From: a virus
Taxonomy: Duplodnaviria; Heunggongvirae; Uroviricota; Caudoviricetes
Virus record (IMG/VR): IMGVR_UViG_2541047895_000009
Coordinates: 1 to 15,546 of that record
Length of the DNA: 15,546 nt
Strand: one strand, 5' to 3'
Position numbers and translations under genes: made by a program. The stretch's first letter is position 1; each line of letters starts with the position of its first letter. Positions 1-15,546 of this stretch are shown one piece after another. The notes beneath the pieces are model-generated. The model searched no databases. It was not told where the DNA came from and saw only the letters and a list, made by a program, of their open reading frames with translations.

Positions 1-662
<662 letters not shown>

Positions 663-2716: not shown

Positions 2717-3508
2717 TTACGCCAGTTGTACGGACACGAACTCATCAGGGTCAGCCAGCAGCATCAGCGGTGCTGACTGAATCATGGTGAACTCACGCGC
2801 CGGATCGCCGGTGGTCACCCAGTTTTTCGGGTAGCGGGCAGAGGCGTTAATGCCTTCGCGCTGTGCGTCCGCATCCTGAATGCAGCCATAGGTGCGCAGA
2901 CCGCGTGCCTGAGTGTTCCCCAGTACCATCGTGTTGTCCGGCAGGAAGTTCTTTTTGACGCCGTTTTCCACGTACTGTCCGGAATACACGACGATGGCCA
3001 CATCGCCATACATCCCCTTATAGGACACCGCTTTACCCAGGTCTTTTACCGCTGTCTCCAGCTCGGAATTAGAGCCGCGACGGGTATCCAGCTTCTCCCT
3101 GACAGCTTTGAAGGAACGGAACAGCGCCCAGCCTTTCGGATCAAACACGATGATATTCACCACACCGCTGGCATTCAGCGCGTAGGCTTCAATATCGTCG
3201 GTCGGGTCATACGTGGACTTGTCACGCTTGCTCCACTCCGTGCCGCCGGACTGTGTGATGTTGTTCGCCGCACTGCGGCCCATATCCACCTCAACCGGAT
3301 CGAAGGCTTCACCGGTCATGGTGTATTTGCCCCTGAGCACGGCAGAAACGGCCTGCATCTCTTCGACCTGAGCAATGGCCAGCTCTTCGTCTCGCATGTT
3401 CTGCAGGATGATGCGACGGCGGCGGTAAGCCGGGTCCGCCAGATTCTGTGGATCTTCATCCGGCAGGCGACGCAGAGTCATCTGCGGATTCACCTCATGC
3501 TTGGGTTA
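2717..3508 (-). pseudogene. E: major capsid protein E, C-terminal fragment (codons ~83-341), separated from its 5' part by the inserted element
   Basis: Translation (PKH)EVNPQMTLRRLPDEDPQ...DEFVSVQLA matches the lambda gpE C-terminal 259 residues. An in-frame TAA lies immediately upstream of the homology and there is no promoter-proximal start. Confidence 0.9.
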
Positions 3509-3512
3509 CATG
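3494..3512. other. left junction of inserted element (attL-like): ctcaTGCTTgggttacatg
   Basis: Lambda E homology runs to about 3502, then diverges. The sequence is an imperfect direct repeat of 14911-14930 (aagTGCTTcggcttgacata), sharing the TGCTT core. Confidence 0.6.
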
Positions 3513-3583
3513 AGTCAAATATGAAAGGATGTGAATGATTTTTAGTGATAATATGCTTCAGAATTACTTCCAAAACGAACCGT

Positions 3584-3604
3584 TGCAATACATCATGCAA
3601 TACA
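3584..3604 (+). repeat. tandem direct repeats TGCAATACA (2 copies), candidate arm-type integrase-binding sites on the attL side
   Basis: TGCAATACA at 3584-3592 and 3596-3604. The same motif recurs in the same orientation at 14766-14802 beside int. Confidence 0.4.
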
Positions 3605-3626
3605 CAGGATATGTAAGGAGTTATTA

Positions 3627-3812
3627 ATGACTAATTCAGTTGATGTTCAAACCCGTAGAGAAGAATTTGAGCAAGGATATCGAGATGGCTTTCGTTCGGT
3701 TCAGGGCAATGTTTTACCCCCAAAAGCTCCAAGAATTGTACTTGAAACGGGTTCAAAACCTTACGATCAAGGCCATGCTTACGGGGTCAGAGATGCTGGA
3801 GGCAAGCGGTAG
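3627..3812 (+). CDS. small hypothetical protein (61 aa), first gene of the AT-rich cargo operon
   Basis: ATG at 3627 preceded by AAGGAG at 6-nt spacing. The overlapping alternative ORF 3640-3834 has no ribosome-binding site. No recognisable domain. Confidence 0.4.
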   Translation: MTNSVDVQTRREEFEQGYRDGFRSVQGNVLPPKAPRIVLETGSKPYDQGHAYGVRDAGGKR

Positions 3813-3856
3813 CTATCACTGGTATAGTCCATAGAAAAAGTGTAAGGGGTCCTAAA

Positions 3857-4618
3857 ATGGATAATTTTCTCAATGAGTTTTCGTCGGATCAGGAACGAGC
3901 TAGACATTTAGAGAACTTATTAATTAAGGTTGCTCGAGGAGGACCTCGAGATAATAGTGAAAATTATATTTCTCTTAGATCGTACTTTATACAAAACTCT
4001 GTATTAAAACTGTTGCTTCCTGCATTCGTAAGAGAAAACAGAAGCCTAAAAAAATTTTGGGGATTCATACAGCAGAAGTTCCCAACATATAAAGAGCGCG
4101 AGTACTTCATCTCAACTGAATTCACACCGTTATTCGATTATTTCGAAGAGAATCATGCTACGCCTTCGGATGTTCACATAACTGACGGATTAAGAAGCTA
4201 TGATGAGTGTGGCGTGAATGAAGCTTGGGCAAAAGCTCTAGACAGAAGAAACAACGATCCTGAAGGGGCTATTACAGCATCTAGAACATTGCTTGAGACG
4301 GTTTGTAAACACATTCTTGATGATTTAAGTATTACTTATGATAGAAATCTAGACATGAGTGAACTTTATAAACTAACATCCAAAGCACTTAATTTGGCTC
4401 CAGATCAGCACGGAGAACAGATTTTTAAGCAGATACTTAAAGGTTGCTCATCTGTGGTAAATGGCCTTGGCAATTTACGTAATAAATATGGCGATGCTCA
4501 TGGCATAGGGAAAAAACCAATAAAACCTGCTGATCGACATGCTCTTTTAGCTGTTAATCTTGCAGGAAGCATGTCAGTTTTCCTCATTCAAACATGGCAA
4601 AACTTGTCAAACAAATAA
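3857..4618 (+). CDS. Abi_C-domain (abortive-infection C-terminal, HEPN-like) protein, 253 aa
   Basis: C-terminal motif block ...TASRTLLETVCKHILDDL...GCSSVVNGLGNLRNKYGDAHG...ADRHALLAVNLAGSMSVFL matches the Abi_C pattern, including an R-x6-H motif (RNKYGDAH). AAGGGG ribosome-binding site 7 nt before the ATG. Strongly AT-rich relative to flanking phage DNA. Confidence 0.75.
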   Translation: MDNFLNEFSSDQERARHLENLLIKVARGGPRDNSENYISLRSYFIQNSVLKLLLPAFVRENRSLKKFWGFIQQKFPTYKEREYFISTEFTPLFDYFEENHATPSDVHITDGLRSYDECGVNEAWAKALDRRNNDPEGAITASRTLLETVCKHILDDLSITYDRNLDMSELYKLTSKALNLAPDQHGEQIFKQILKGCSSVVNGLGNLRNKYGDAHGIGKKPIKPADRHALLAVNLAGSMSVFLIQTWQNLSNK

Positions 4619-4671
4619 TACCTAATTTTTAACCTCAACTGATTAAATTTCGGTCAAACATCCGTTAGTGA

Positions 4672-4712
4672 AATACAAGTTGCTATGTAAATACACACCT
4701 GCAACTTGTATT
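4672..4712. promoter_or_regulatory. perfect 12-bp inverted repeat aatacaagttgc-N17-gcaacttgtatt, about 54 nt downstream of the Abi_C gene
   Basis: Read directly from the sequence. No U-run follows on either strand, so it is not a canonical intrinsic terminator; an operator or RNA structure is possible. Confidence 0.45.
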
Positions 4713-5572
4713 ACCAACCAAGTTTAGCTCCCGATATTACTCATTTCCATTATTTTTCCTTGGCTAGCGCTTCGTCGAACATTTTTACGTGTTATCTTCA
4801 AGGTAGATGCTCGCAGAAATGATAGTACCACCGATTCGGCGTTGACCATAAGCCAGCAGAACAAGATCCCCTTGGCCGGTTGTATTCGTTACACCACCAA
4901 ATGCATAGAATGCCTTGTTATCAGTATCTTGCTTACTCGGCTACCCACAAGATTGTGGGGATAGCATTTGAGCAACGTAGCCTATCGTCACAGAAGCCCC
5001 TACTACAAACATCATATTACTGGACGCTATACGCGCTCCTGACATTCAGATAGACACAGCAACGCAAATCATTTGCAGCAGACCAGAGCTTTTACTTTCC
5101 ACAATAACTGGCACAAATACGAATTTCCCGACCCTCAGTAGAGAGCACAAGCGCATCTTTTCCAATATTCTGTTTCCTATGAAAAATACAGAATGTCAGC
5201 TCGCGAAATTTACTAGTATTCAGATACTTTTCTAATCGAACCTCTCAGTTTAATCGTCATCATTACCTTATAGCTCTGCATTTCGAGTTCCTACAGTAGA
5301 GTAAGTGTTCAGTAACCCAAGTTCAGGAGAAAGGAAACGATCATGCCATTTTCAGTCCCAAATAATGCTTTCCATTTCCTTTCTTTTCAGGTGGTGTTTT
5401 AAATAAAAACATAAAGTTACGGCGAAGAAGAACGGAAACGCCTTAAACCGGAAAATTTCCATAAATAGAGAAAAACTGCGCGCCTTCCGCCCCGTAACGC
5501 TCCGGATCACCGGAAAGGACCCGCTCAAAAAAAGCGGCCACTGACGTGATTGTTTATGTTCCATGAGCGACA

Positions 5573-5592
5573 AAACCGCCCGGAGGCGGTTT
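5573..5592 (-). terminator. putative intrinsic terminator after the I-like gene
   Basis: Stem aaaccgcc/ggcggttt with a 4-nt loop. On the minus strand the stem is followed by UUUUG, about 20 nt after the I-like stop. Confidence 0.4.
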
Positions 5593-5610
5593 CACATAAA
5601 ACATTCTGCA

Positions 5611-6258
5611 TCAGCGACCAATCACCACGATTTCACCACCATCACCTTCATCAGCTGTGCTGATCTCCTGAGATACCACACGTGACCCCACGCGCATTTC
5701 ACCGTACAGAACAGGCAGGACATTGCCCTGGGCAACCATGTTATCCAGTGACGAGAAATACGTGTTCTGCTTACCGTTATCCGTTGTCTGTGTACGGGGA
5801 GTTCTGGCTTTCGGTGCCAGCATCTGAGCCACACCGCCAAGGATCATACTGGCCCCCGCACTATACATTCCTGTAATTGCTGCCGCTCCTAGCCAACCAG
5901 CGGGGTTCCACCACGCCACCGCAATCAGCGCCGCCCCCAGCACGGTCTGAAACACACCGCCACTTTTAGCGCCAGCAAGACGCGGTACGATGTGGATCAC
6001 AGCACCATTCGCCAGCGGCTCATTAAGACGGGCTGATAATTCATTTTCGCCTGCATCCCGCCCGGCAATCCGTACCTGATACCAACCGTCGCTCAGTTTC
6101 TGACGAAACGACGGTAGCTGTGTGGACAGAGCTCGGATGGCTTCAGCCCCCGTTTTTACACGAAGGTCGATGCGGCGGCCGAATCGTTGCAAATCCCCGT
6201 AAAGGCAGATTCGTGCCATGCCCGATGACGCCAGAGGGAGTGTGTGCGTAGTTGCCAT
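5611..6258 (-). CDS. lambda gpI-like tail assembly protein (215 aa)
   Basis: N- and C-termini (MATTHTLPLASSGMARICLYGDLQRFGRRIDLRVKTGAEAIRAL... and ...KQNTYFSSLDNMVAQGNVLPVLYGEMRVGSRVVSQEISTADEGDGG) match lambda gpI as recalled, with a divergent central segment. It is not followed by a J gene but by a hairpin and ORF-free DNA. Confidence 0.8.
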   Translation of the reverse strand: MATTHTLPLASSGMARICLYGDLQRFGRRIDLRVKTGAEAIRALSTQLPSFRQKLSDGWYQVRIAGRDAGENELSARLNEPLANGAVIHIVPRLAGAKSGGVFQTVLGAALIAVAWWNPAGWLGAAAITGMYSAGASMILGGVAQMLAPKARTPRTQTTDNGKQNTYFSSLDNMVAQGNVLPVLYGEMRVGSRVVSQEISTADEGDGGEIVVIGR

Positions 6259-6298
6259 TTGTCGGTATACCTCTCTCGTTTGCTCTGTTGTTCAGAAA

Positions 6299-6682
6299 TT
6301 AGCAGATCAACTTATAGCGTCCCTTCCGAGCATTGCGGCGTACACGTTCAATCTTGAGGCATAGCGCCGCATCTGGCTTTTTTGGGACTGGTACACGGCA
6401 ATATTCAGAAGCGCGAGGAATATTATTTATCCAGTCAATCACTTCGCTTAAATACCAGGCCTTACGCCCTTCCGTAACCTGCACACGCTCCGGGAACTCT
6501 CCACGGGCCTCAAGGTTTAGCAGTGTACGACGACTCAGGGTTGTAAGTTCCATCACCTGATTCATATCAACAAGACGCTCGCTTAAACGCATTTTGTCAG
6601 CGATAGCTTTTAATTCCTCTACAGCTGGATTTGGGTACATAATTTCGGCAATTGGCTTAAGGTCATTGTAATGATTCTGCAT
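6299..6682 (-). CDS. AlpA-family (MerR/Xis-type helix-turn-helix) DNA-binding protein with an N-terminal extension, 127 aa
   Basis: Core ...MELTTLSRRTLLNLEARGEFPERVQVTEGRKAWYLSEVIDWI fits the AlpA pattern. AAGGGGGA ribosome-binding site 5 nt before the ATG at 6680-6682. Confidence 0.6.
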   Translation of the reverse strand: MQNHYNDLKPIAEIMYPNPAVEELKAIADKMRLSERLVDMNQVMELTTLSRRTLLNLEARGEFPERVQVTEGRKAWYLSEVIDWINNIPRASEYCRVPVPKKPDAALCLKIERVRRNARKGRYKLIC

Positions 6683-6693
6683 TGTATCCCCCT

Positions 6694-7035
6694 TTACACA
6701 CGAGCCAGCGGCTGAACAGAAATACCTGAGCCAACAAACGCTGCAACCTTTACTGACAGTTCTTTTACAGACTCAGGCCAGTTCAGAGCATCAACATTTA
6801 AGACACCTGTCTTATAGACCTGAGCCTGTGTTTTTTTCGCGGTGTCGATTTGTACAGCGGATACATAAACCGCTTTACCTACGCTCGTACCATCCCATAC
6901 CACCAGTGCACCTGTTGCATCTTCCTGCATCAGTGGCGTAAATGCAGGAATTACCCCTTTATTAGCTGAAAATATCCCCAGCGTAGTAACCAGTGCTTCA
7001 GTGCCAGCCATGAGTTCAGTGTAATGAGTAGCCAT
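6694..7035 (-). CDS. gpD-like head decoration protein (113 aa), divergent from prophage D
   Basis: ALVVWDGTSVGKAVYVSAV...YKTGVLNVDALNWP aligns with the lambda gpD motif [19 protein letters not shown]...[23 protein letters not shown] ribosome-binding site; translationally adjacent to the E-like gene. Confidence 0.75.
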   Translation of the reverse strand: MATHYTELMAGTEALVTTLGIFSANKGVIPAFTPLMQEDATGALVVWDGTSVGKAVYVSAVQIDTAKKTQAQVYKTGVLNVDALNWPESVKELSVKVAAFVGSGISVQPLARV

Positions 7036-7044
7036 TGCTCCCCC

Positions 7045-8085
7045 TTAGCCAATGCGAACGGTAACAAAACGATTGATGCGGGCCGGTATTGGCTGTGGTG
7101 CTGAATGTGTCTGCACATATTCAATAGCCGGATCACCAGGCACAATATAGTTTTTCGGTGCAAGTTCGGCTTTAGTCAGCCCCATTCGGATTAGCTCCGG
7201 ATCCTGAATACCGCCATAGGCGACAATCCCCTGAAGAGCCGTATTGCCAAGCACCATCAAATCAGGATCAAGGAAATGTTTTTCAGTTCCGTCCTCGTCG
7301 GTATAACGCCCGCTGTAAACAACAATCGCAACATCGCCCATATACCCTTTAAAACTCACCGAATCACCAAGGTCTTTAAGGGCCGTTTCCAGTTCGGAAT
7401 TAGAACCACGACGGGTATCCAGAGCCTCTTTTATCGCTCTGAATGAACGGTATTTCTTCCATACATTACCGCCCATAATGATGATATTAGTGACGCCCTC
7501 ACTAAATTCTGCGTAGTTCTCAATATCATCATTTGGATCAAAAGTTTCTTTATCCTTACCTGACCACTCAGCACCGCCAGACTGAGTGATGATATTTTGT
7601 GGTTTAATATTCCAGTCCAGCTCATAACGTTCAATACCATCGCCCTCAATGATATTTTTCCCCGTTGTGATTGCCTGAACGGCAAGCCATTCAATACGTG
7701 CACGAATAGCTTTAGCTTGATTTACAATCGCCTGTTTAACTTTAATATTACGCGCCCCAAAAGCATTGTATTGCTCAGGTGATACACCAGCAGGGCGCAC
7801 AGCTAACTTATTTGGATCAATGCTGCTTTTCGGCTTCATATAGCCTGGACGAATTGTTTTTGATTCGTACCCTTCGTCACGTGAAACTTTACTACCCACC
7901 ATAGGAGAACAAAACGCTGCAATTGGGATATTTGGATCGTCGATTGTATCAAGAATAATATCGCGCGATTCAAACATTACCGAGCGAGTAAAAAACAAAC
8001 GGGTAAACAACGCATTTAGTTGTTTTTGTACATCTACAGCATTAACCACCTGTACAAGCTGGGTAGGCGAATATAAATCAACCAT
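7045..8085 (-). CDS. lambda E-like major capsid protein (347 aa), divergent second copy encoded within the inserted element
   Basis: Clear homology along its length to lambda gpE (GYMKPK vs GYVKPK; ITQSGGAEWSGKDKETFDPNDDIENYA vs ITQSGGTEWSKRDKSTYDPTDDIEAYA; LDTRRGSNSELETALKDLG...GDVAIVVYSG). Start taken at the ATG at 8083-8085, 6 nt after AAAGAGG; the 404-aa track ORF is an upstream extension. AT-richer than the prophage E. Confidence 0.85.
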   Translation of the reverse strand: MVDLYSPTQLVQVVNAVDVQKQLNALFTRLFFTRSVMFESRDIILDTIDDPNIPIAAFCSPMVGSKVSRDEGYESKTIRPGYMKPKSSIDPNKLAVRPAGVSPEQYNAFGARNIKVKQAIVNQAKAIRARIEWLAVQAITTGKNIIEGDGIERYELDWNIKPQNIITQSGGAEWSGKDKETFDPNDDIENYAEFSEGVTNIIIMGGNVWKKYRSFRAIKEALDTRRGSNSELETALKDLGDSVSFKGYMGDVAIVVYSGRYTDEDGTEKHFLDPDLMVLGNTALQGIVAYGGIQDPELIRMGLTKAELAPKNYIVPGDPAIEYVQTHSAPQPIPARINRFVTVRIG

Positions 8086-8259
8086 ACGCATCCTCTTTGC
8101 ATTCATTAAAAATAATTGTGGATATATGCTATCACCGATATTTGTCATGCGAATACATGCAACCGAGTGCAATGTTGTATAAAGTTTTGGGATGACAACT
8201 TCAGCGCGGATAATTAGTGTTAATATCTTCACTCCCTTTGGTCGGGATTTATGTAGCAT

Positions 8260-8294
8260 GCCGGAAAATTTATTTTTTTCCGGCCTTTTTTATT
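8260..8294 (+). terminator. GC-stem hairpin plus T-run (gccggaaaa-N7-ttttccggc CTTTTTTATT), terminator-like on the plus strand
   Basis: Read from sequence between ssb and the E-like gene. The U-run follows the stem only on the plus strand, so it would stop antisense or convergent transcription rather than ssb read-through. Confidence 0.35.
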
Positions 8295-8302
8295 GGCAAT
8301 AT

Positions 8303-8752
8303 TTAAAACGGAATATCATCTCCCCATTGCTCATTATCTCCCACTGGTGGATGGCTTCCTTGCTGATCTGCCTGTTGTTTTGCTCTGTTCAGTGCGTCAG
8401 TAGCCTGCCCCTGTTGGCCTTTTTTGCCGCCCGGTCGCACCGTTCGCGCACTGATTACGCTGTCTGCGATAACCTGCCAGCCCTGCCGCGTTTCACCGTT
8501 CTGTCCAGTCCACTGACTCACCTGCATGTTACCCGCCACGCTCAGGAGTTCGCCTTTGTGATGCTTTGCCAGCGCGTCGGCTTGTCTGCCAAACGCCAGA
8601 ACAGATAACCACATCGTCGCCTGACCGTCATCCGATTGGCTGCAGGGCAGTGATACCGCCATACGCGCCAGCGTCATGGGGGTGCCCTTGCTGGTCTGTT
8701 TTGTCTGCGGGGCGTCCACCAGCCGCCCGTAAGCTGCTATTTGCGCCGTCAT
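8303..8752 (-). CDS. ssb: single-stranded DNA-binding protein (SSB)
   Basis: 149 aa. OB-fold-like N-terminal region, Gly/Gln-rich linker and the hallmark acidic C-terminal tail ...WGDDIPF. ATGA overlap with the upstream ORF. Confidence 0.85.
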   Translation of the reverse strand: MTAQIAAYGRLVDAPQTKQTSKGTPMTLARMAVSLPCSQSDDGQATMWLSVLAFGRQADALAKHHKGELLSVAGNMQVSQWTGQNGETRQGWQVIADSVISARTVRPGGKKGQQGQATDALNRAKQQADQQGSHPPVGDNEQWGDDIPF

Positions 8753-9006
8753 GCTGCCTGCTCTCCGGACTTAATATTGATGGTTGTCACTTCCTCCGCT
8801 TCGGCAATCTCCCGTTCGGTCAGCGTGGCAAAGTTTGCAGCCGCCGTTGTCATGAATGCGCTTATCAGTTCGGGATGTGCTTTCGCGTATCCTTCCCCGG
8901 CGTTGCGGTCTATTGCCTTAATCGCCACCCTTAGCCAGTGTTCAGCCATATCAAGGGCGCGGTAATGTGGCTTTATATGTTTGTTCAGTTTTCCTGATGT
9001 GTGCAT
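8749..9006 (-). CDS. hypothetical protein (85 aa), between origin and ssb
   Basis: ORF translationally coupled to ssb (ATGA overlap). No recognisable motif. Confidence 0.45.
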   Translation of the reverse strand: MHTSGKLNKHIKPHYRALDMAEHWLRVAIKAIDRNAGEGYAKAHPELISAFMTTAAANFATLTEREIAEAEEVTTINIKSGEQAA

Positions 9007-9051
9007 TTTTATTTTTACCCCCTCGTTTAAAAAGTTTTTTGTGCACCACCA

Positions 9052-9283
9052 CCTTGTCTACCTTGTCTACCTGATTAGTTATCAGGCCAGTAATGGCGCG
9101 GGTTTCAGGGAGGTAGACAGCCCCAAATAGCTGTCTACCTCATCTCTACCCGTCTCCTTACCTGTCTACAAAAATGGGTAGATAAGGTAGATAACAGGTA
9201 GACAGTGAAAAATAGTTATCTACCTGCATTAATACATTGAAATAAAAGTATTTTCTTTCAGTCAGGTAGACAAGGTAGATAAC
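9052..9283. repeat. iteron array, putative replication origin: at least 11 copies of GGTAGA(C/T)A / T(G/A)TCTACC in both orientations
   Basis: Copies include cttgtctacc x2 (9053-9071), gaggtagacag, gctgtctacc, cctgtctaca, gggtagataaggtagataacaggtagacag, ttatctacc and caggtagacaaggtagataacc. Lies immediately downstream of the primase gene in an AT-rich non-coding gap. Confidence 0.7.
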
Positions 9284-9295
9284 CATTGCCATTTT

Positions 9296-11047
9296 TTATA
9301 AAAACGCATCGCAATCATCAGTAGTCGTTGCGTTGGTCTGCGTGACTCCCTTAACTTTTCGCGTAATATATTCATATCCGTAAACTTTCGCCGCTGACCT
9401 CATAGCCTTTCCGAACTCATTCACGCTCAAACATTTCCCCTTTCCTGTGTATGCCATGAAGGCCATATAGACACGGTAAAGGCTGTTTCTGGTCGTGTAC
9501 TTCACGGAGTCACCACCACCGCCCATCATTAGCCCACGAGCTTCCTCCAGAAACTCAAGCGCCGCGCAAAGCTCAACAACTGGATCCGTTTGCTGCTTTA
9601 TTGCCAGAGCTTCATCACCGTCACGCTGTTCCAGTAGTAAAGCCCTTGCCTTTTCAGGGTCAGCAAAGTTAGCCAGCAAGCGGCGGATAATTACGGGGAT
9701 TTCTGCCGCTATCTTTTCCGGTAATTCCTTGTCTTTTTCGTCCTCCCTTACAATGTTGTCGAACCGGAAAATCACCCGACGGCGTGACACACCTCCGGCC
9801 CGTTCGGTAAAGATCATCGGGTCGTTATTGGTTGCCAGTACCACCGCCCTTATTATCGTCGTGAATCGCTTCTCATATTTCGGATTGATTTCAACGGGAT
9901 CGCCTCCCGTGATTTTCTTGATGCCCGTGCCTTCCCCCGTATATTTCGGCTGATCGGCAAGGACGATAAGACGACTCCCGACAACCTGCGCGCGCCCTCC
10001 TGCATCATCGAGTGATGTCATCTCTGCGCTTACGGTGTTCTGTTTGCCTGCAAGCAGGGTGGCAATATGGGTAAATGTACTCTTACCGCTTCCCCCGTCT
10101 CCGGTGGCCTCAATGAACATCTGCCAGTCGTAGCGGTTCGCCATAATCATGTATAACGCGGCACATATACGCATCATCTTGCGCGGGTCTTTTCCTGCAG
10201 CATGTTCAAGCCATTTATGGAAATTTGGCGCATTATCGCGGATGTTTTCCCCTGCTACTGGTGGCGTGTACTCAATACCATTGTGCGTGGTGCTCCAGTG
10301 CTCCGGCGAGTGCGGAGAAAATTCCCCCGTTTTCAGATTAAGCACACCATTAGTGAACGGTAGCAAATCACCGGACGGCTCCCCCATGGGGGCGGCAATA
10401 ACTTTTAACGCTTCCACGGCGTTATTGATTACGCGTTTGCTGAACGTGGCCCTGTGCTCTGAATAGATCGCCACCATTTCGCGGCTCAGCTCCATTGTGC
10501 TGACCGGACACCATACCCCGCCGCGCCATACGTGGACGATTTCACTTTCTGCATGAACACAAACACCATCAAAGCGATCGGCAAGTAGTTGTGCCCGCTC
10601 ACTGTCTGCCATCTGTGAAAGTTGCGCCTTTTGCTTCGTCGGAAGATTAAGCACCAGGCTTTCCCCACGCTCGCATTCCTCTTTGAGTCGCGGCAACTGG
10701 TCGGATAAATCCACAGGGCTGGTGTCAGTAATCCCCGCGTATTCGTGTACGGTCTTCACTCCAGCCACAGCCAGTAACGTAACAATCTGCGTCATGCTGT
10801 GCTCTGTGATATGTCCTGCGCGGTAAACACGCACACACTGACGATCTTCATCAATGATCCGGTAATCGGTGATGTTTTTCAGTTGCTCATCAGCCAGCAC
10901 GACAGGCGGCACATCGTCGGCGGCAATATGTTTACCCGCCCATTCCTGCCACTCTTTCGCATGGCTCCACGCATCACTACCTGCAAAGATGATTACCTCT
11001 GTCAGTCTGTCGCGTGGCTGTTTTTTTAAGTTCGGTGCCAGTTTCAT
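9296..11047 (-). CDS. P4-alpha-type primase/replicase (D5-N / phage-plasmid primase C-terminal family), 583 aa
   Basis: Walker A P-loop EATGDGGSGKSTF plus the typical satellite/PICI primase-helicase layout. ATGA overlap with the upstream 99-aa ORF. Confidence 0.88.
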   Translation of the reverse strand: MKLAPNLKKQPRDRLTEVIIFAGSDAWSHAKEWQEWAGKHIAADDVPPVVLADEQLKNITDYRIIDEDRQCVRVYRAGHITEHSMTQIVTLLAVAGVKTVHEYAGITDTSPVDLSDQLPRLKEECERGESLVLNLPTKQKAQLSQMADSERAQLLADRFDGVCVHAESEIVHVWRGGVWCPVSTMELSREMVAIYSEHRATFSKRVINNAVEALKVIAAPMGEPSGDLLPFTNGVLNLKTGEFSPHSPEHWSTTHNGIEYTPPVAGENIRDNAPNFHKWLEHAAGKDPRKMMRICAALYMIMANRYDWQMFIEATGDGGSGKSTFTHIATLLAGKQNTVSAEMTSLDDAGGRAQVVGSRLIVLADQPKYTGEGTGIKKITGGDPVEINPKYEKRFTTIIRAVVLATNNDPMIFTERAGGVSRRRVIFRFDNIVREDEKDKELPEKIAAEIPVIIRRLLANFADPEKARALLLEQRDGDEALAIKQQTDPVVELCAALEFLEEARGLMMGGGGDSVKYTTRNSLYRVYMAFMAYTGKGKCLSVNEFGKAMRSAAKVYGYEYITRKVKGVTQTNATTTDDCDAFL

Positions 11048-11343
11048 TTTTTGCCCCTGAATGCGTTAATCATGCTTTTCATTTTCTGGATGTTTCCCCG
11101 CGCTTTTTCCCTGCTGGTGGGCTTACTGCGGGGTGCGGCATATACCAGGGAAAAATCACGCCGGAACTGATAAACAGGCATCACGCAGTCATAGCTATAC
11201 CCCTCACGGCGGTAAGTGATGCGCCGTTCTGCCACGCCTTTAATCGTTACCGTGCCGCCGTATTTATCGCGGTAAATATCGCCGTTCATAAATTCAGGCC
11301 GAGCGGGGCCGCTGGCAATAAAGCCAGAATTTTTCATTTCCAT
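11044..11343 (-). CDS. hypothetical protein (99 aa), translationally coupled to the primase
   Basis: ORF with ATG at 11341-11343; its stop overlaps the primase start. No motif recognised. Confidence 0.55.
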   Translation of the reverse strand: MEMKNSGFIASGPARPEFMNGDIYRDKYGGTVTIKGVAERRITYRREGYSYDCVMPVYQFRRDFSLVYAAPRSKPTSREKARGNIQKMKSMINAFRGKK

Positions 11344-11360
11344 ATTATTTATTCTTCGAC

Positions 11361-11582
11361 TTAACTCGACTTATTTGATAGCAGGGCACTATTTATTGCG
11401 TCATTGAGTTTTTCTGCTGCTTCATCAATAAGTGACAACAGGCCATAAGCAATATTTGCATCTTCATTGTCATTTATGCAATCAAGCCACATATTTAATA
11501 TTGCTTTTGCTGAATTATTTAAAGTTAATGAACTCTCTGCACATGCTAACAATTTAAAAAAGACTTCTCGTTCTGTATTCAT
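11361..11582 (-). CDS. hypothetical small protein (73 aa), AT-rich
   Basis: ORF in a tightly packed same-strand array upstream of the primase. Confidence 0.45.
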   Translation of the reverse strand: MNTEREVFFKLLACAESSLTLNNSAKAILNMWLDCINDNEDANIAYGLLSLIDEAAEKLNDAINSALLSNKSS

Positions 11583-11774
11583 TTAATCCCCCACCAGCTT
11601 ACTTTCTTCCTCAATCAGGAAACTAGCGACACTTCCCGAAAGGCGCGCCAGTAGGCTCGCCAGCGCGGATATATCAGCATCTGTAATTTTGTTCGGGTAT
11701 ACCTCAAGAAGGCGGCAAATAATCTCTGTTTGGTGCGCACGTTCAGCGGCTTCGTGTAATGTGATTTCCTGCAT
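11583..11774 (-). CDS. hypothetical small protein (63 aa)
   Basis: ORF abutting neighbours with start/stop overlaps, suggesting an operon. Confidence 0.45.
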   Translation of the reverse strand: MQEITLHEAAERAHQTEIICRLLEVYPNKITDADISALASLLARLSGSVASFLIEEESKLVGD

Positions 11775-11959
11775 TAATGCACCTCTTTTAATTCATACAC
11801 TGCTGAAATAATGACTTGTGATAAGCCATATTCTGATGATTCGCTTCTCACCGCAGCAATAGCCGTCTGAACATTAACAGCCTTCACGTTCTGAGCGATA
11901 CCAATTGTGTGGCCTCGTGGGTTAACAGCTCGGGCAAATACACGGAAGGTTTTAAGCAC
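11774..11959 (-). CDS. hypothetical small protein (61 aa), GTG start
   Basis: GTG at 11957-11959 preceded by AGGAGG at about 6-nt spacing. Overlaps the stop of the upstream ORF. Confidence 0.45.
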   Translation of the reverse strand: MLKTFRVFARAVNPRGHTIGIAQNVKAVNVQTAIAAVRSESSEYGLSQVIISAVYELKEVH

Positions 11960-12155
11960 GGCGCACCTCCTGACGAATACGGGCAGCGAATACCATCACG
12001 CAGCCAGTTGGGGATTGCTGGCGGGCTTCCTGTTCGCTGATGGCCTCGATGGTAATCACGCGCGGTTGTGCCGTACTCAAGGCGATAAAACGCCAGATGT
12101 ATTTATTCAGGTTGTGCGAGTTCCGCCCTTGCGGGTGTGTGGTATGATTTCTCAT
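11952..12155 (-). CDS. hypothetical small protein (67 aa), first gene of the leftward regulatory operon
   Basis: ATG at 12153-12155 preceded by GAGGT. The longer track ORF (to 12215) would run through the upstream inverted-repeat region. Confidence 0.45.
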   Translation of the reverse strand: MRNHTTHPQGRNSHNLNKYIWRFIALSTAQPRVITIEAISEQEARQQSPTGCVMVFAARIRQEVRRA

Positions 12156-12190
12156 AGCTACCTCGATACTGTTGCTATCGTTGGTGGTTA

Positions 12191-12292
12191 AACGCCCTGT
12201 ATGTGTTGCGAGCACTGCAGGGCGTTGTTCCAGAGCAATAAAACATGATAAGGTGTGTACCTATCAAGAAGCATACTAAGCAATAGGTACAT
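12191..12292. promoter_or_regulatory. divergent promoter/operator region with two inverted repeats
   Basis: AACGCCCTG-N18-CAGGGCGTT (12191-12226) and GTGTACCTAT-N18-ATAGGTACAT (12255-12292), located between the divergently oriented small-ORF operon and the RHH gene. Confidence 0.4.
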
Positions 12293-12294
12293 AC

Positions 12295-12489
12295 ATGTCA
12301 ACTATCATTCAGCGCGATAAACAGCCGAAAGGTGCTGGTAAGGCACCGGCATTTCAGATCCGTATCAACCCGGAACTAAAAGAACAAATGGTTAGTGCGG
12401 CTGCAAAAGAAGGAATGAGTTTGGCTAATTGGCTTAAAGAACTAGCAAGAGCAGAACTACGCAAACAAGGTATTGAACCTAGAGGTTAA
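12295..12489 (+). CDS. Arc/ribbon-helix-helix-type small DNA-binding protein (64 aa), candidate repressor or antitoxin
   Basis: KAPAFQIRINPELKEQMVSAAAKEGMSLANWLKELARAELRK fits the RHH beta-strand plus two helices pattern. No obvious Shine-Dalgarno; the second inverted repeat abuts its start. Confidence 0.6.
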   Translation: MSTIIQRDKQPKGAGKAPAFQIRINPELKEQMVSAAAKEGMSLANWLKELARAELRKQGIEPRG

Positions 12490-12513
12490 GACTTTTAAAA
12501 GGATCTGTGAGAG

Positions 12514-13239
12514 ATGCAAAATCTAAAACGAATAAGTGAATATAATTTAACAGACAATCCTATCCCACATTATTTCCCTCATGATAGTAGATTCCTGTCT
12601 CTACTTGGGAAATTTTCGTTCCGACTTGAAGATCTAATAGTATTTCACTCATTTGTTTATCATACATATAACATAAATCTTAAGGAGATACAAAAAATTG
12701 CAGATAACACTCCCCAATATAATCCAGACTTATTAGACGATGAAGAGCATGAAATGGCCTTGATTTCTCAAGCCAGACATAGAGAGAGGGTTGGTTATTA
12801 TGATGATCTTAATAGAAAAGCCTCATTTTTTGCCAATGACAGTGTCGTAATTAATCTTTGGGCTATTATTGAACAGTTTAGTACCATGGCATACTCTTTG
12901 CTAGAAGCAATTATTAAAGAAATACCTGAAAATCAAGTTAAAGTTCCATATACATGGGATAAATTAAAAAAGAAATACTTAAGTTATGGTATTGACCTCT
13001 CCCAACTTGATTCTTACGATGTCATTAACGAAACTAGGGTTTTAAACAACAAAATCAAACACCTTTATATTGTCGATGAAAACCTTGCCTCTTTTCCTTT
13101 TTTCAAGGACAAAGAGAACAAGTCATTATTAGGAATGGAATATAGGCTTCAAGATTATGTTATTGGAACTCATAAGTTCATCGGGCATCTTTTAGAGGAT
13201 TGCTCCATAAAATTAGGAAATAAGGCAAACATGATTTAA
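12514..13239 (+). CDS. hypothetical protein (241 aa), very AT-rich cargo gene downstream of the RHH gene
   Basis: Long uninterrupted ORF 24 nt after the RHH gene. No motif I can assign with confidence. Confidence 0.65.
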   Translation: MQNLKRISEYNLTDNPIPHYFPHDSRFLSLLGKFSFRLEDLIVFHSFVYHTYNINLKEIQKIADNTPQYNPDLLDDEEHEMALISQARHRERVGYYDDLNRKASFFANDSVVINLWAIIEQFSTMAYSLLEAIIKEIPENQVKVPYTWDKLKKKYLSYGIDLSQLDSYDVINETRVLNNKIKHLYIVDENLASFPFFKDKENKSLLGMEYRLQDYVIGTHKFIGHLLEDCSIKLGNKANMI

Positions 13240-13243
13240 ATTA

Positions 13244-13270
13244 ATTAGGTAGGTAATAAACCTACCTAAT
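13244..13270. terminator. perfect 10-bp inverted repeat attaggtagg-taataaa-cctacctaat between convergent genes
   Basis: Read from sequence; sits between the 241-aa gene (+) and alpA (-). AT-rich flanks on both sides, so possibly a bidirectional terminator. Confidence 0.45.
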
Positions 13271-13279
13271 TGAAATGAT

Positions 13280-13513
13280 TTACTTATTTAAGTACCATTC
13301 CCCACGAATCCACGCCTGCACCTCCGAAAGGCGATATGCTACGGCAGTGGCACCTATTTTAATTCGCTTTGGAAACTTTCCTTCTTTCTCTAACTTCCAT
13401 CGAGTGCTATTAGCAAGAGTAGTTAACTCACGGCATTCTTTCTCACGGATCATTCGGTCAATGTTAGGAATGTATTCCAGACCCTTTTTATCAACAATTG
13501 CCATTTTTTTCAT
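13280..13513 (-). CDS. alpA: AlpA-family excisionase/transcriptional regulator (77 aa)
   Basis: ...CRELTTLANSTRWKLEKEGKFPKRIKIGATAVAYRLSEVQAWI fits the AlpA helix-turn-helix pattern. Immediately downstream of int on the same strand. Confidence 0.8.
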   Translation of the reverse strand: MKKMAIVDKKGLEYIPNIDRMIREKECRELTTLANSTRWKLEKEGKFPKRIKIGATAVAYRLSEVQAWIRGEWYLNK

Positions 13514-13514
13514 G

Positions 13515-14750
13515 TTAACCAGCCTTTTGTTTGAGGATTGTCACTTTTGAATCAGCAGCTGCGATGCTATTGAGATATGTAGTCCAGAGTTCCAGAGCAT
13601 CCAGTTTTTTAGCCATAAACTTACTCCGGTTGTAAACACCTGCCACGCCAGGTAGCGCATGGCCTAACAGTTGTTCTACTACATAAAATTCAACACCGAG
13701 ATCACTTAGATGAGTAGATAGCGTTCTTCTAAGGTCGTGTAGTGACCATTGTTTTTCATGGCCCAAACGTTTACCGATTTTCCCCCCAATCTTGCTTACG
13801 CTTTCTCTAATTCGCAGACTTCCCAGCACATAACCAGTATGTTTTGTCTCTTCGTGAACATCCGTTACCCACTGTCGTAGAATTTCAGGTACTGGTCTGA
13901 CGATTTCAACACCAGTTTTTGAGTGATCTTTTGGTACAGTCCAAACCCAACTTTCGAGATCCCATTCGCTCCATTCTGATAATCGGGCTTCACTCATTCG
14001 ACATCCAAATACTGTACAAAGCACAAACATTTTTCGCGTGTATTCAGACATTAGTTTTAAATCAGGCTCGACAAAAATTGCCTTCCAGAGCTGGCCGAGT
14101 TCGGCTTCATCCAGAACCCGATCCCGCTTACCTGCAATCTGCCCCACATCACTCATGCGCAAATCCTTTAAAGCATCACACGTCGCGTACTGGCGTACCC
14201 GACAAAAACGAAGAGCTAATTTAGTGTCAGAAAAAACATACGCCGCCATAACTGGTGCATTACTTTTAATTCGGTCAAAACAGTCCAGCCATTCATATAG
14301 GTGAGTGTCATTTACGGGCAAATGACCGATATAGGGAAAGATATGCTTTCGAAATCTGCCAAGCGTTACAGCATGAGTTTTACGACGCACCTTACAGTAA
14401 TTTTCATACCAGTAATTTAGTGCATCCTCCACTGTGACCGGCTTTAAGCGTTCTTCAGCCTGAATCTTAATCTGGATACGCGGATCACGTTTGTCAGCCA
14501 ACCAAGCACGGCACTCGTCGCGCTTTTCCCTTGCCTGTTTGAGTGACATATCAGGATATTTACCCAACGTTAGCCAGACCGGAGCAGCCCGGCCACCTGC
14601 TAACCTGTAGAAGAAAACAAAGCTCACAGCCCCCTTGGTACTCACACGAATAGAAAGCCCCTTTCCATCAGCAATGGTGATCTGCTTTTCTCTGGGTTTC
14701 CCCAGATATCCTTTAAGTGCTTTGTCGCTCAGTTTGTTCTCGCCAGCCAT
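13515..14750 (-). CDS. int: P4-type tyrosine integrase (411 aa)
   Basis: N-terminal arm-binding-type domain (LSDKALKGYLGKP...ADGKGLSIRVSTKGAVSFVFFYRLAGG...WLTLGKYPDMSLKQAREKRDE) and a catalytic domain with R...HDLRRT...LLGH...Y. Start taken at the ATG at 14748-14750; the 455-aa track ORF is an upstream extension. Ends about 160 bp inside the right junction. Confidence 0.9.
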   Translation of the reverse strand: MAGENKLSDKALKGYLGKPREKQITIADGKGLSIRVSTKGAVSFVFFYRLAGGRAAPVWLTLGKYPDMSLKQAREKRDECRAWLADKRDPRIQIKIQAEERLKPVTVEDALNYWYENYCKVRRKTHAVTLGRFRKHIFPYIGHLPVNDTHLYEWLDCFDRIKSNAPVMAAYVFSDTKLALRFCRVRQYATCDALKDLRMSDVGQIAGKRDRVLDEAELGQLWKAIFVEPDLKLMSEYTRKMFVLCTVFGCRMSEARLSEWSEWDLESWVWTVPKDHSKTGVEIVRPVPEILRQWVTDVHEETKHTGYVLGSLRIRESVSKIGGKIGKRLGHEKQWSLHDLRRTLSTHLSDLGVEFYVVEQLLGHALPGVAGVYNRSKFMAKKLDALELWTTYLNSIAAADSKVTILKQKAG

Positions 14751-14765
14751 TTTTAGCCCCAAAAA

Positions 14766-14802
14766 GCAATACAAGCTGCAATACAGAGATGATTGCAACA
14801 CA
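14766..14802 (+). repeat. direct repeats GCAATACA x2 plus variant TGCAACACA in the int upstream region, candidate arm-type Int sites
   Basis: gcaataca at 14766-14773, tgcaataca at 14777-14785, tgcaacaca at 14794-14802; same motif and orientation as 3584-3604 at the other end. Confidence 0.4.
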
Positions 14803-14882
14803 CAGATAACGAGGAAAATCCAGTGAAAGCGCCAGATAAACTTATTCTTTATTATCAAAAGATTAAGTGTAAAAACCAGCAA

Positions 14883-15158
14883 CTACACGAAAGCCTCAGA
14901 AAGCCATGCTAAGTGCTTCGGCTTGACATATCCCGGCGTAAATTCAGAGGTGGAGCCGCCACGGGAGCGGATAACCTCACCGGAAACAATCGGCGAAACG
15001 TACAGCGCCATGTTTACCAGCCCCGGAATTTGTGAGAGATAGACTTTCTCCGTGGTGAAGGGATAGCTCTCACGGAAAAAGAGACGCAGAAACAGCGGAT
15101 CAAACTTAAATTTCTGCTCATTTGCCGCCAGCAGCTGGGCGGTTGTGTACATCGACAT
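14883..15158 (-). pseudogene. E: major capsid protein E, N-terminal fragment (codons 1-82) fused to 9 element-derived codons and a stop
   Basis: MSMYTTAQLLAANEQKFKFDPLFLRL...SEFTPGYVKPKH matches the lambda gpE N-terminus, then LAWLSEAFV and stop from element DNA. Confidence 0.9.
14905..14930. other. right junction of inserted element (attR-like): gctaagTGCTTcggcttgacata
   Basis: Lambda E homology begins at about 14914. Imperfect direct repeat of 3494-3512 sharing the TGCTT core. Confidence 0.6.
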
Positions 15159-15171
15159 AAAAAAATCCCGT

Positions 15172-15192
15172 AAAAAAAGCCGCAAAGGCGGC
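15172..15192 (-). terminator. D-E intercistronic hairpin (gccgc-ctttg-cggc) followed by a U7 run on the transcribed strand
   Basis: On the minus strand the RNA reads GCCGCCUUUGCGGC UUUUUUU ACGGGAUUUUUUU AUG. Attenuator/terminator-like structure between D and E. Confidence 0.4.
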
Positions 15193-15213: not shown

Positions 15214-15546
15214 TTAAACGATGCTGATTGCCGTTCCGGCAAACGCGGTCCGTTTTTTCGTCTCGTCGCTGGCAGCATCCGGCCAGAGCACATCCTCATA
15301 ACGGAACGTGCCGGACTTGTAGAACGTCAGCGTGGTGCTGGTCTGGTCAGCAGCAACCGCCAGAATGCCAACAGCAGCACCGTCAGTGGTGCCATCCCAC
15401 GCAACCAGCTTACGGGTGGAGGTATCCGGCATCAGCGGGGTCATTGCAGGCGTTTTCGCACTCAATCCGCCGGGCGCGGTTGCGGTATGAGCCGGGTCAC
15501 TGTTGCCCAGCGGCTGGTAATGGGTAAAGGTTTCTTTGCTCGTCAT
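15214..15546 (-). CDS. D: head decoration protein D
   Basis: 110 aa, [27 protein letters not shown]...[11 protein letters not shown], matches lambda gpD. The start codon is the last three bases of the window. Confidence 0.93.

Follow-up and report, generated by a model that had tools for sequence, protein, structure and literature searches.

Phage-inducible chromosomal islands (PICIs) in Escherichia coli typically have one AlpA (PMC11773190); for Gram-negative PICIs, this protein is described as the master activator encoded next to the integrase, and the AlpA of EcCICFT073 activates its own promoter (PMC6092414). Passages of the paper by Tommasini, Mageeney and Williams (2023; PMC10111431) place Phage_AlpA and HTH_17 proteins in the Integration zone, describe satellite and helper late genes as co-oriented, and mention the use of strain NRG857c, which carries the element 11capE, for induction experiments. 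One PICI, EcCIMP1, has a second AlpA-family gene, alpA_1, which is dispensable for the core cycle of that element (PMC11773190). Here, we describe a stretch of viral DNA of 15,546 nucleotides (nt), IMG/VR record IMGVR_UViG_2541047895_000009, the whole of which we call the window. It contains a helper-embedded PICI (HE-PICI) with two AlpA-family genes, one of which, here named alpA2, is the last gene of the satellite's capsid operon. We found that alpA2 belongs to a conserved module with the capsid genes and with an array of direct repeats, and we propose that its product regulates the operon through this array.

AlpA2 and the capE–HDPD–alpA2 module

The alpA2 gene (positions 6299–6682, minus strand) begins with ATG and encodes a protein of 127 amino acids (aa) with an AlpA-family winged helix-turn-helix (wHTH). 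An earlier sequence-only reading of the window had named it a second AlpA-family regulator, and this was borne out by profile searches. Residues 36–85 matched Pfam PF05930 (Phage_AlpA) at 35 bits (cut-off 21, E = 1.3e-8), spanning profile positions 2–51 of 51, and residues 11–109 gave a near full-length match to phrog_2790, "excisionase and transcriptional regulator" (E = 3.5e-48). The sole significant sequence match in the Protein Data Bank (PDB) was the GIsul2 excisionase 8C3T, itself of the AlpA family (phmmer E = 1.6e-10, profile E = 6.4e-13), which was also the best Foldseek match of the AlphaFold model (template modelling score 0.72 on the target, 44% identity across 52 columns). The remaining Foldseek matches fell into the broad winged-helix class that takes in MerR, excisionases and Nu1. 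The canonical 77-aa AlpA (AlpA1; 13280–13513, minus strand; Phage_AlpA E = 6.5e-15) does stand beside the integrase, as the same reading had it, and fills the usual PICI AlpA slot. The alpA2 gene lies 6.8 kb off, in the late zone, and the two proteins are 38% identical over 65 aa.

AlpA2 consists of an N-terminal extension (residues 1–34), the wHTH (35–89), a linker and a C-terminal helix (105–120). In the AlphaFold model, the extension is predicted to form helices at residues 8–15 and 19–31, and the C-terminal helix is fairly confident. The N-terminal extension, previously estimated at roughly 40 aa, is genuine, at about 34 aa: nearly all homologs, in 99 clusters, have the full 127 aa, with an ELxxIADKM helix preceding the HTH. 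Most comparisons of nonsynonymous and synonymous substitution rates (dN/dS) were saturated at synonymous sites, but where dS was measurable, dN/dS was 0.2–0.7 for codons 2–34, 0.01–0.11 for the HTH and 0.08–0.16 for a conserved C-terminal tail of about 38 aa, which the earlier reading had not described. An exhaustive phmmer search of 1.84 billion representatives returned about 940 AlpA-like proteins. The C-terminal tail was present in only three to four clusters at 50% identity, while the roughly 900 other matches aligned to the HTH core alone. NCBIfam has no model specific to AlpA2. AlpA2 is thus a distinct paralog within the AlpA family, representing an annotated but uncharacterised sub-family.

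In the window, alpA2 follows two structural genes on the minus strand: the lambda E-like major capsid gene, capE (7045–8085; 346 aa, with its ATG at 8085 according to RefSeq), and the lambda D-like head decoration gene, HDPD (6694–7035). The gaps between the three genes are only 9 and 11 nt, showing that they form a tightly packed operon. The same Shine–Dalgarno motif, AAGGGGGA, was read from the sequence ahead of HDPD (7039–7046, overlapping the capE TAA stop) and ahead of alpA2 (6687–6694, overlapping the HDPD TAA stop at 6694–6696), 3 and 4 nt 5' of the respective ATG. From this common motif, co-expression of alpA2 with the structural module had been suggested; given the spacing as well as the motif, that suggestion is well founded.

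The position of an AlpA-like gene inside a capsid block had also been thought unusual, but it is not peculiar to the window. We found alpA2 in 373 of 5,426 complete E. coli genomes (about 7%), and the module in at least 12 genera: Escherichia, Enterobacter, Klebsiella, Citrobacter, Salmonella, Pluralibacter, Trabulsiella, Kosakonia, Kluyvera, Cedecea, Buttiauxella and Scandinavium. Homolog searches found the AlpA2 family in Enterobacteriaceae only; a tblastn search of 50,697 phage records with AlpA2 gave no match, and repeating the homolog search from the most divergent AlpA2 as seed added no members. Besides the window, 17 alpA2 loci were compared, from Escherichia, Pluralibacter, Buttiauxella, Scandinavium, Kosakonia, Kluyvera, Superficieibacter, Cedecea and metagenomic contigs. 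The order Phage_cap_E, HDPD, alpA2 was present in all 16 loci whose contigs extend far enough upstream, and alpA2 was the final gene of the triad in every locus. The primases that accompany the triad differ, and its integration modules are of at least three unrelated kinds: in one, AlpA1 goes with the capsid-E HE-PICI integrase, in another, an HTH_17 protein goes with a different integrase, and the third is a fis-adjacent type. By comparison, 80 of 80 EcCICFT073-type capE loci from IMG/VR had neither alpA2 nor the repeat array described below. The capE–HDPD–alpA2 triad is therefore a conserved module of a whole enterobacterial PICI lineage.

The sequence-only reading placed the gene between D-like and I-like genes, which is true in the window, where the I-like gene (Lambda_tail_I; 5611–6258, minus strand) follows HDPD and alpA2, but the I-like neighbour is secondary. 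It is part of a captured lambdoid fragment (5611–6299, minus strand) made up of K', a 3' fragment, and the complete I tail-assembly gene, both annotated accordingly, and exactly positions 5600–6299 are 87–90% identical in nucleotide sequence to lambdoid phages. The junction falls in the last alpA2 codon, at the stop (G to C). Since K'–I is present in only 3 of the 5,426 E. coli genomes, the flanking of alpA2 by D-like and I-like genes amounts to a recent accident. The ancestral downstream neighbour is cos: in seven locus types (L002, L004, L008/L112, L009, L010, L011 and L061), a lambda-like cos, cosQ followed by cosN, starts 26–53 nt past the alpA2 stop. Between alpA2 and cos stand the K'–I fragment in the window and a gene for a 131-aa Rpp-like protein in Pluralibacter elements.

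The repeat array and the proposed role of AlpA2

Upstream of capE, on the minus strand, the window contains a candidate operator (8147–8182) of four direct repeats in 10-bp phase: TTATAC (8177–8182), TTGCAC (8167–8172), TTGCAT (8157–8162) and TCGCAT (8147–8152), with N4 between them. The trimer pattern of this array is unique within the window and was found in 0 of 200 shuffles. An array of three to four direct repeats at 10-bp spacing was present upstream of capE in all 15 alpA2 loci checked. Elsewhere in these 7–27-kb alpA2 loci, the repeats never came in runs of three or more, and single two-repeat matches were seen in three loci. In IMG/VR, a scan for the exact TTGCAC trimer gave more than 120 loci, among them three with the capE module and two with the full capE–HDPD–alpA2 triad (the contig of the third ends inside capE); for so large a collection, the pattern is not long enough to be diagnostic. 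We also considered whether the array might be the iterons of a replication origin; this was rejected, as the iterons of the element (GGTAGAYA) differ in sequence and are located at 9055–9283.

Past the array lies an extended −10-like element, TGATAGCAT (8126–8134, minus strand), from which we infer a capsid-operon promoter, P_cap. Every alpA2 locus checked has a −10-like element past its array and no convincing −35, and the extended pattern TGnTAnnAT is conserved in loci with TTGCAC- and TTGTAC-type arrays. The distance from the last repeat to the −10-like element is 24–25 nt in the loci other than the window and NRG857c, among them L005, L008, L009, L010, L011 and L133. On its upstream side, P_cap is separated from the replication genes by a hairpin past ssb (8260–8284, minus strand), which has a T-tail on the plus strand only.

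The repeat unit tracks the AlpA2 subtype. TTGCAC arrays accompany the common subtype; TTGTAC arrays accompany the subtype of Cedecea and the fis-adjacent PICIs, whose predicted recognition helix carries R52G and A59K; and TTATAC arrays accompany the Buttiauxella/Scandinavium subtype, which has N56D, L57M, A59E and three changes in the wing. The unit does not follow the regulator encoded beside the integrase. The Scandinavium locus L132 has an AlpA1 92% identical to that of the window, yet its array is TTATAC, and the loci L005, L009 and L010, from Pluralibacter, Kluyvera and Superficieibacter, have unrelated HTH_17 proteins (27–35% identity) and nevertheless TTGCAC arrays. Loci L004 and L132, which have their array type in common, encode AlpA2 proteins that are 84% identical and integrase-side regulators that are unrelated (27%).

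We propose that AlpA2 is an autoregulator of the satellite capsid operon that acts through the array, a role to which we give about an even chance. As a sequence-specific winged-helix DNA-binding protein encoded at the end of a self-contained unit (P_cap, capE, HDPD, alpA2), AlpA2 would bind the three to four direct repeats head-to-tail, upstream of an extended −10 that lacks a good −35, and once bound would control its own operon. AlpA2 is proposed as the array binder because the module encodes no other DNA-binding protein and because its own family includes both an autoactivating PICI regulator and binders of tandem direct repeats. Structural neighbours of the BldC type bind direct repeats head-to-tail. 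Positive feedback is favoured over negative autoregulation, since an array just upstream of a promoter without a −35 has an activator-like geometry. Read-through, either of satellite transcription from upstream or of helper late transcription, would supply the first dose of AlpA2. According to the sequence-only reading, AlpA2 might couple helper late-gene expression to satellite functions, but we found no evidence for this: about 60 kb of helper prophage DNA contained no candidate array, leaving the satellite's own capsid-operon promoter as the only candidate target. In a more far-reaching version, AlpA2 would be the dedicated master switch of the satellite capsid programme, with positive feedback at P_cap that sets when the satellite produces its own E-like and D-like shell proteins, and with extensions that contact a helper component such as terminase or RNA polymerase and so link expression to cos packaging. 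We regard this as improbable, but if true, PICI capsid genes, which have yet to show a phenotype, would gain a function; deletion of the capsid and decoration genes of EcCICFT073 reportedly left both transfer and interference unchanged.

Several observations weigh against autoregulation through the array. A single 2-kb module contains both the array and alpA2, and the two are passed on as a unit, so their covariation could reflect common descent, particularly as there are only three subtypes and one lineage that lacks alpA2. In the window and NRG857c, the last repeat and the −10-like element are 15 nt apart, 10 bp less than elsewhere, and the promoter geometry is thus not uniform; because the difference is one helical turn, the helical phase is kept. 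The AlpA2 model is of moderate quality (mean predicted local distance difference test (pLDDT) score 67, core pLDDT 60–78, predicted template modelling score 0.40). Lastly, lambda CII recognises TTGC-N6-TTGC as well, and the binder of the array could thus be a helper factor.

This last point leads to an alternative in which the array is bound by a CII-like activator of the helper, by a host response regulator or by the integrase-side AlpA, while AlpA2 has its targets elsewhere, for example in helper genes. Direct repeats at 10 bp are also typical of OmpR-family regulators, and coupling to helper late expression would fit the co-orientation with helper late genes noted in passages of PMC10111431. 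We nevertheless consider it unlikely. A conserved host or helper factor would not be expected to accompany a concerted shift of the repeats to TTGTAC or TTATAC, the array does not follow the integrase-side regulator, and the roughly 60 kb of helper DNA examined contained no second array. At pRE, a distance of 13 nt separates the CII sites from the −10 hexamer, as opposed to the 24–25 nt between last repeat and hexamer in the loci other than the window and NRG857c. E. coli RM14723 contains an identical copy of the window, and the cII region is missing from the helper in this strain. A second recombination directionality factor, acting on the satellite integrase or replacing helper Xis, was also considered. 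The nearest solved relative of AlpA2, 8C3T, is an excisionase, phrog_2790 is labelled as such, and the C-terminal tail could contact the integrase in the way that lambda Xis does through its own C-terminal tail. Moreover, alpA_1 of EcCIMP1 was reported to stand in for helper Xis (PMC11773190), although it is arranged differently, on the opposite strand at the end of its element. However, AlpA2 does not co-vary with a particular integrase or attachment site: one subtype occurs with at least three unrelated integrases and att sites (capsid-E HE-PICI, chromosomal, and next to fis). Each of these integrases already has a canonical AlpA or HTH_17 protein beside it, and alpA2 is linked to the capsid genes, with int and att some 7 kb away. 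AlpA2 is therefore probably not the excisionase of the element, and we hold a role in directionality to be very unlikely.

A packaging-related role is retained as a minority view because the position of alpA2 next to cos is conserved, with nothing but inserted genes between the two in the window and in the Pluralibacter loci. AlpA2 would in that case be an Rpp-like or TerS-accessory wHTH protein that binds near cos or helper TerS and favours packaging of the satellite. Its fold is of the MerR-like wHTH class to which the N-terminal domain of lambda Nu1 (1J9I) belongs, the TerS chain of 6HN7 was among the Foldseek matches, and Rpp has a similar late-zone position (PMC6739421). This too seems quite unlikely to us. 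RppA of EcCICFT073 (c1503, taken from the CFT073 genome) gave no BLASTP alignment with AlpA2 at E ≤ 100, and PDB searches with AlpA2 at E ≤ 10 brought up neither 6HLK nor 6HN7 and showed no similarity to RppC or Nu1. In L007, an RppA ortholog (70% identity) comes after alpA2, and in L004, L008, L010, L132 and L133, Nu1-like terS genes do. Given the lack of similarity and these co-occurrences, AlpA2 is neither a homolog of Rpp nor a replacement for it. In addition, one AlpA2 subtype adjoins differing cosB types and packaging genes, no repeat array or motif that tracks the AlpA2 subtype was seen between alpA2 and cos, and the HTH is central in AlpA2 but N-terminal in Rpp.

The Q-like antiterminator AlpA of Pseudomonas aeruginosa (PA0907) was rejected as a relative as well, since no such match appeared in the PDB searches and the two have only the name in common. 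The P. aeruginosa protein has a different architecture, and its binding element lies between −35 and −10 (PMC9371919). Proteins of that type are larger and 21Q-like, with about 140 or more residues, eight helices and a C-terminal HTH.

The satellite element, its cos region and its host prophage

The satellite is an insert of about 11.4 kb within capsid gene E of a degraded lambdoid prophage, in the same orientation as the prophage genes. Gene E is split into an N-terminal part (14883–15185, with the first ≈83 codons within it) and a C-terminal part (2717–3493), the insert running from about 3500 to 14915, and an imperfect core, CC(G/C)AAGCA(C/T), is common to both junctions. With this split gene and with int, alpA1 and a D5_N primase gene all on the minus strand, the element is of an already known type, the HE-PICI 11capE. 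Its integrase (13515–14750, minus strand) belongs to the capsid-E-targeting HE-PICI clade and is 99% identical to the 11capE integrase of NRG857c, and the gene order and the insertion point in gene E are identical to those of the NRG857c type element. AlpA1 is followed on the minus strand by small genes and DUF4222, then by the primase gene (9296–11047) and ssb (8303–8752). Iterons, GGTAGAYA / TGTCTACC in both orientations, lie at 9055–9283 between the primase gene and an 85-aa gene, and this region is likely the replication origin of the satellite. The satellite int and primase genes are flagged as frameshifted in RefSeq, yet both are intact open reading frames in the window. Between alpA1 and an icd-like gene, a divergent pair (12295–13239, plus strand) encodes an Arc/HicB-like protein of 64 aa and a protein of 241 aa that matched no family; this pair may be an immunity or accessory unit. 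At the other end, adjoining attR, an accessory slot holds an AbiJ-like abortive-infection gene (3857–4618, plus strand; Pfam Abi_C, PADLOC AbiJ). NRG857c has DUF262 and HEPN genes there instead, which points to a hotspot for defence cargo. Rfam and tRNA scans of the window gave no matches.

From sequence reading and comparison, the lambda-like cos of the satellite was placed at 5326–5522 (minus strand). It comprises a cosQ-like part (5493–5522), a cosN-like 12-mer, GGGCGGAAGGCG (5481–5492), an R3-like part (5423–5442), and R2-like and R1-like parts extending to about 5326. A passage of PMC10111431 notes a cos at the corresponding place in 11capE. A search for lambda cosN with up to two mismatches gave nothing relevant. 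In NRG857c, the cosN-like 12-mer is GGGCGTCAGGCG, while the helper prophage (L138, about position 1360) has the lambda sequence GGGCGGCGACCT; the cosQ, R3 and I1 sequences flanking the satellite and helper cosN are 87% identical. Between the I gene and cos, we read a terminator-like hairpin, AAACCGCC-TCCG-GGCGGTTTT (5572–5593, minus strand). Downstream of cos, positions 4791–5235 (minus strand) contain a frameshifted remnant of another, satellite-type I-like gene, 53% identical to a 194-aa protein of Pluralibacter PICIs. Since intact versions occur in the late zones of L005–L007, L009 and L061, I-like genes are a recurring kind of satellite cargo.

In other loci, different genes occupy this region. 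A full-length Nu1-like terS lies directly past alpA2 and cos in the five loci named above (at about 10550–11120 in each), unlike 11capE and EcCICFT073, which have none, and the cosB of L004, L008 and L010 differs from the lambda type (TGCTGGTGGTGGTGTTGTTGTT). In the Pluralibacter-type PICIs, the 131-aa protein is encoded directly past alpA2. It resembles only the C-terminal half of RppA, without the N-terminal HTH, and L007 has its full RppA ortholog as well; the positions concerned are 9033–9428 in L006 and 1848–2243 and 2392–2811 in L007.

The helper genes in the window are on the minus strand, beginning with a lambda-like D gene (15214–15546); past the insert come the rest of E and then FI, FII, Z, U and V. 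Elements of the IS3 family truncate the tail tube gene V (window positions 1–654) and the replication gene P (8979–10147 of L138). The helper in RM14723 has lost its early region, and cI and O are missing along with cII. With these genes gone, it is defective.

Comparison with described satellites and AlpA proteins

A widespread sister lineage pairs its capsid genes with an AlpA paralog of their own and with a conserved, putative repeat-array promoter, which suggests that the PICI capsid genes are a separately regulated unit and not passive cargo. The candidate operator sequence, the three natural specificity variants and the culturable strain NRG857c offer handles on when and why satellites express capsid proteins. 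The case also counsels against labelling all AlpA-family genes as integration or excision functions by default. As far as our literature search could find, the placement of AlpA2 in the module, its extensions and its predicted operator are undescribed, and the proposed circuit of AlpA2 and the array has not yet been described for PICI satellites. The searched passages of PMC10111431 make no mention of a late-zone AlpA paralog or of the array.

Among described elements, ours is of the 11capE type (PMC10111431), with the likeness in integrase, gene-E site and gene order given above; the K'–I capture and the AbiJ-like cargo are additional in the window copy. The second AlpA-family gene of EcCIMP1, like alpA2, is found in an E. 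coli PICI far from int. It differs in lying on the opposite strand at the far end, in being TorI-like (similar to helper Xis) and serving as a stand-in excisionase, and in belonging to an element without a capsid module (PMC11773190). The Rpp proteins (RppA/B/C; 6HLK, 6HN7; PMC6739421) are, like AlpA2, small late-zone wHTH proteins of the MerR/Nu1 fold class encoded beside the satellite cos, but are set apart by the undetectable sequence similarity, the position of the HTH and the presence of both in L007. The GIsul2 excisionase, the best solved relative, is a 73-aa protein corresponding only to the core wHTH (AlpA2 residues 33–95); it lacks both extensions and has another genomic role.

EcCICFT073 provides a comparison at two positions. 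After HDPD, where the window has alpA2, it encodes an unrelated 137-aa protein. Its canonical AlpA, by contrast, has PF05930 and the wHTH fold in common with AlpA2. Canonical PICI AlpA proteins are about 70–80 aa long and stand beside int, whereas AlpA2, at 127 aa, has extra N-terminal helices and a C-terminal helix, is encoded in the late zone at the end of the capsid operon independently of the integrase type, and has its candidate operator at the promoter of that operon. The autoactivation demonstrated for the EcCICFT073 protein (PMC6092414) is the behaviour that we propose for AlpA2 at P_cap.

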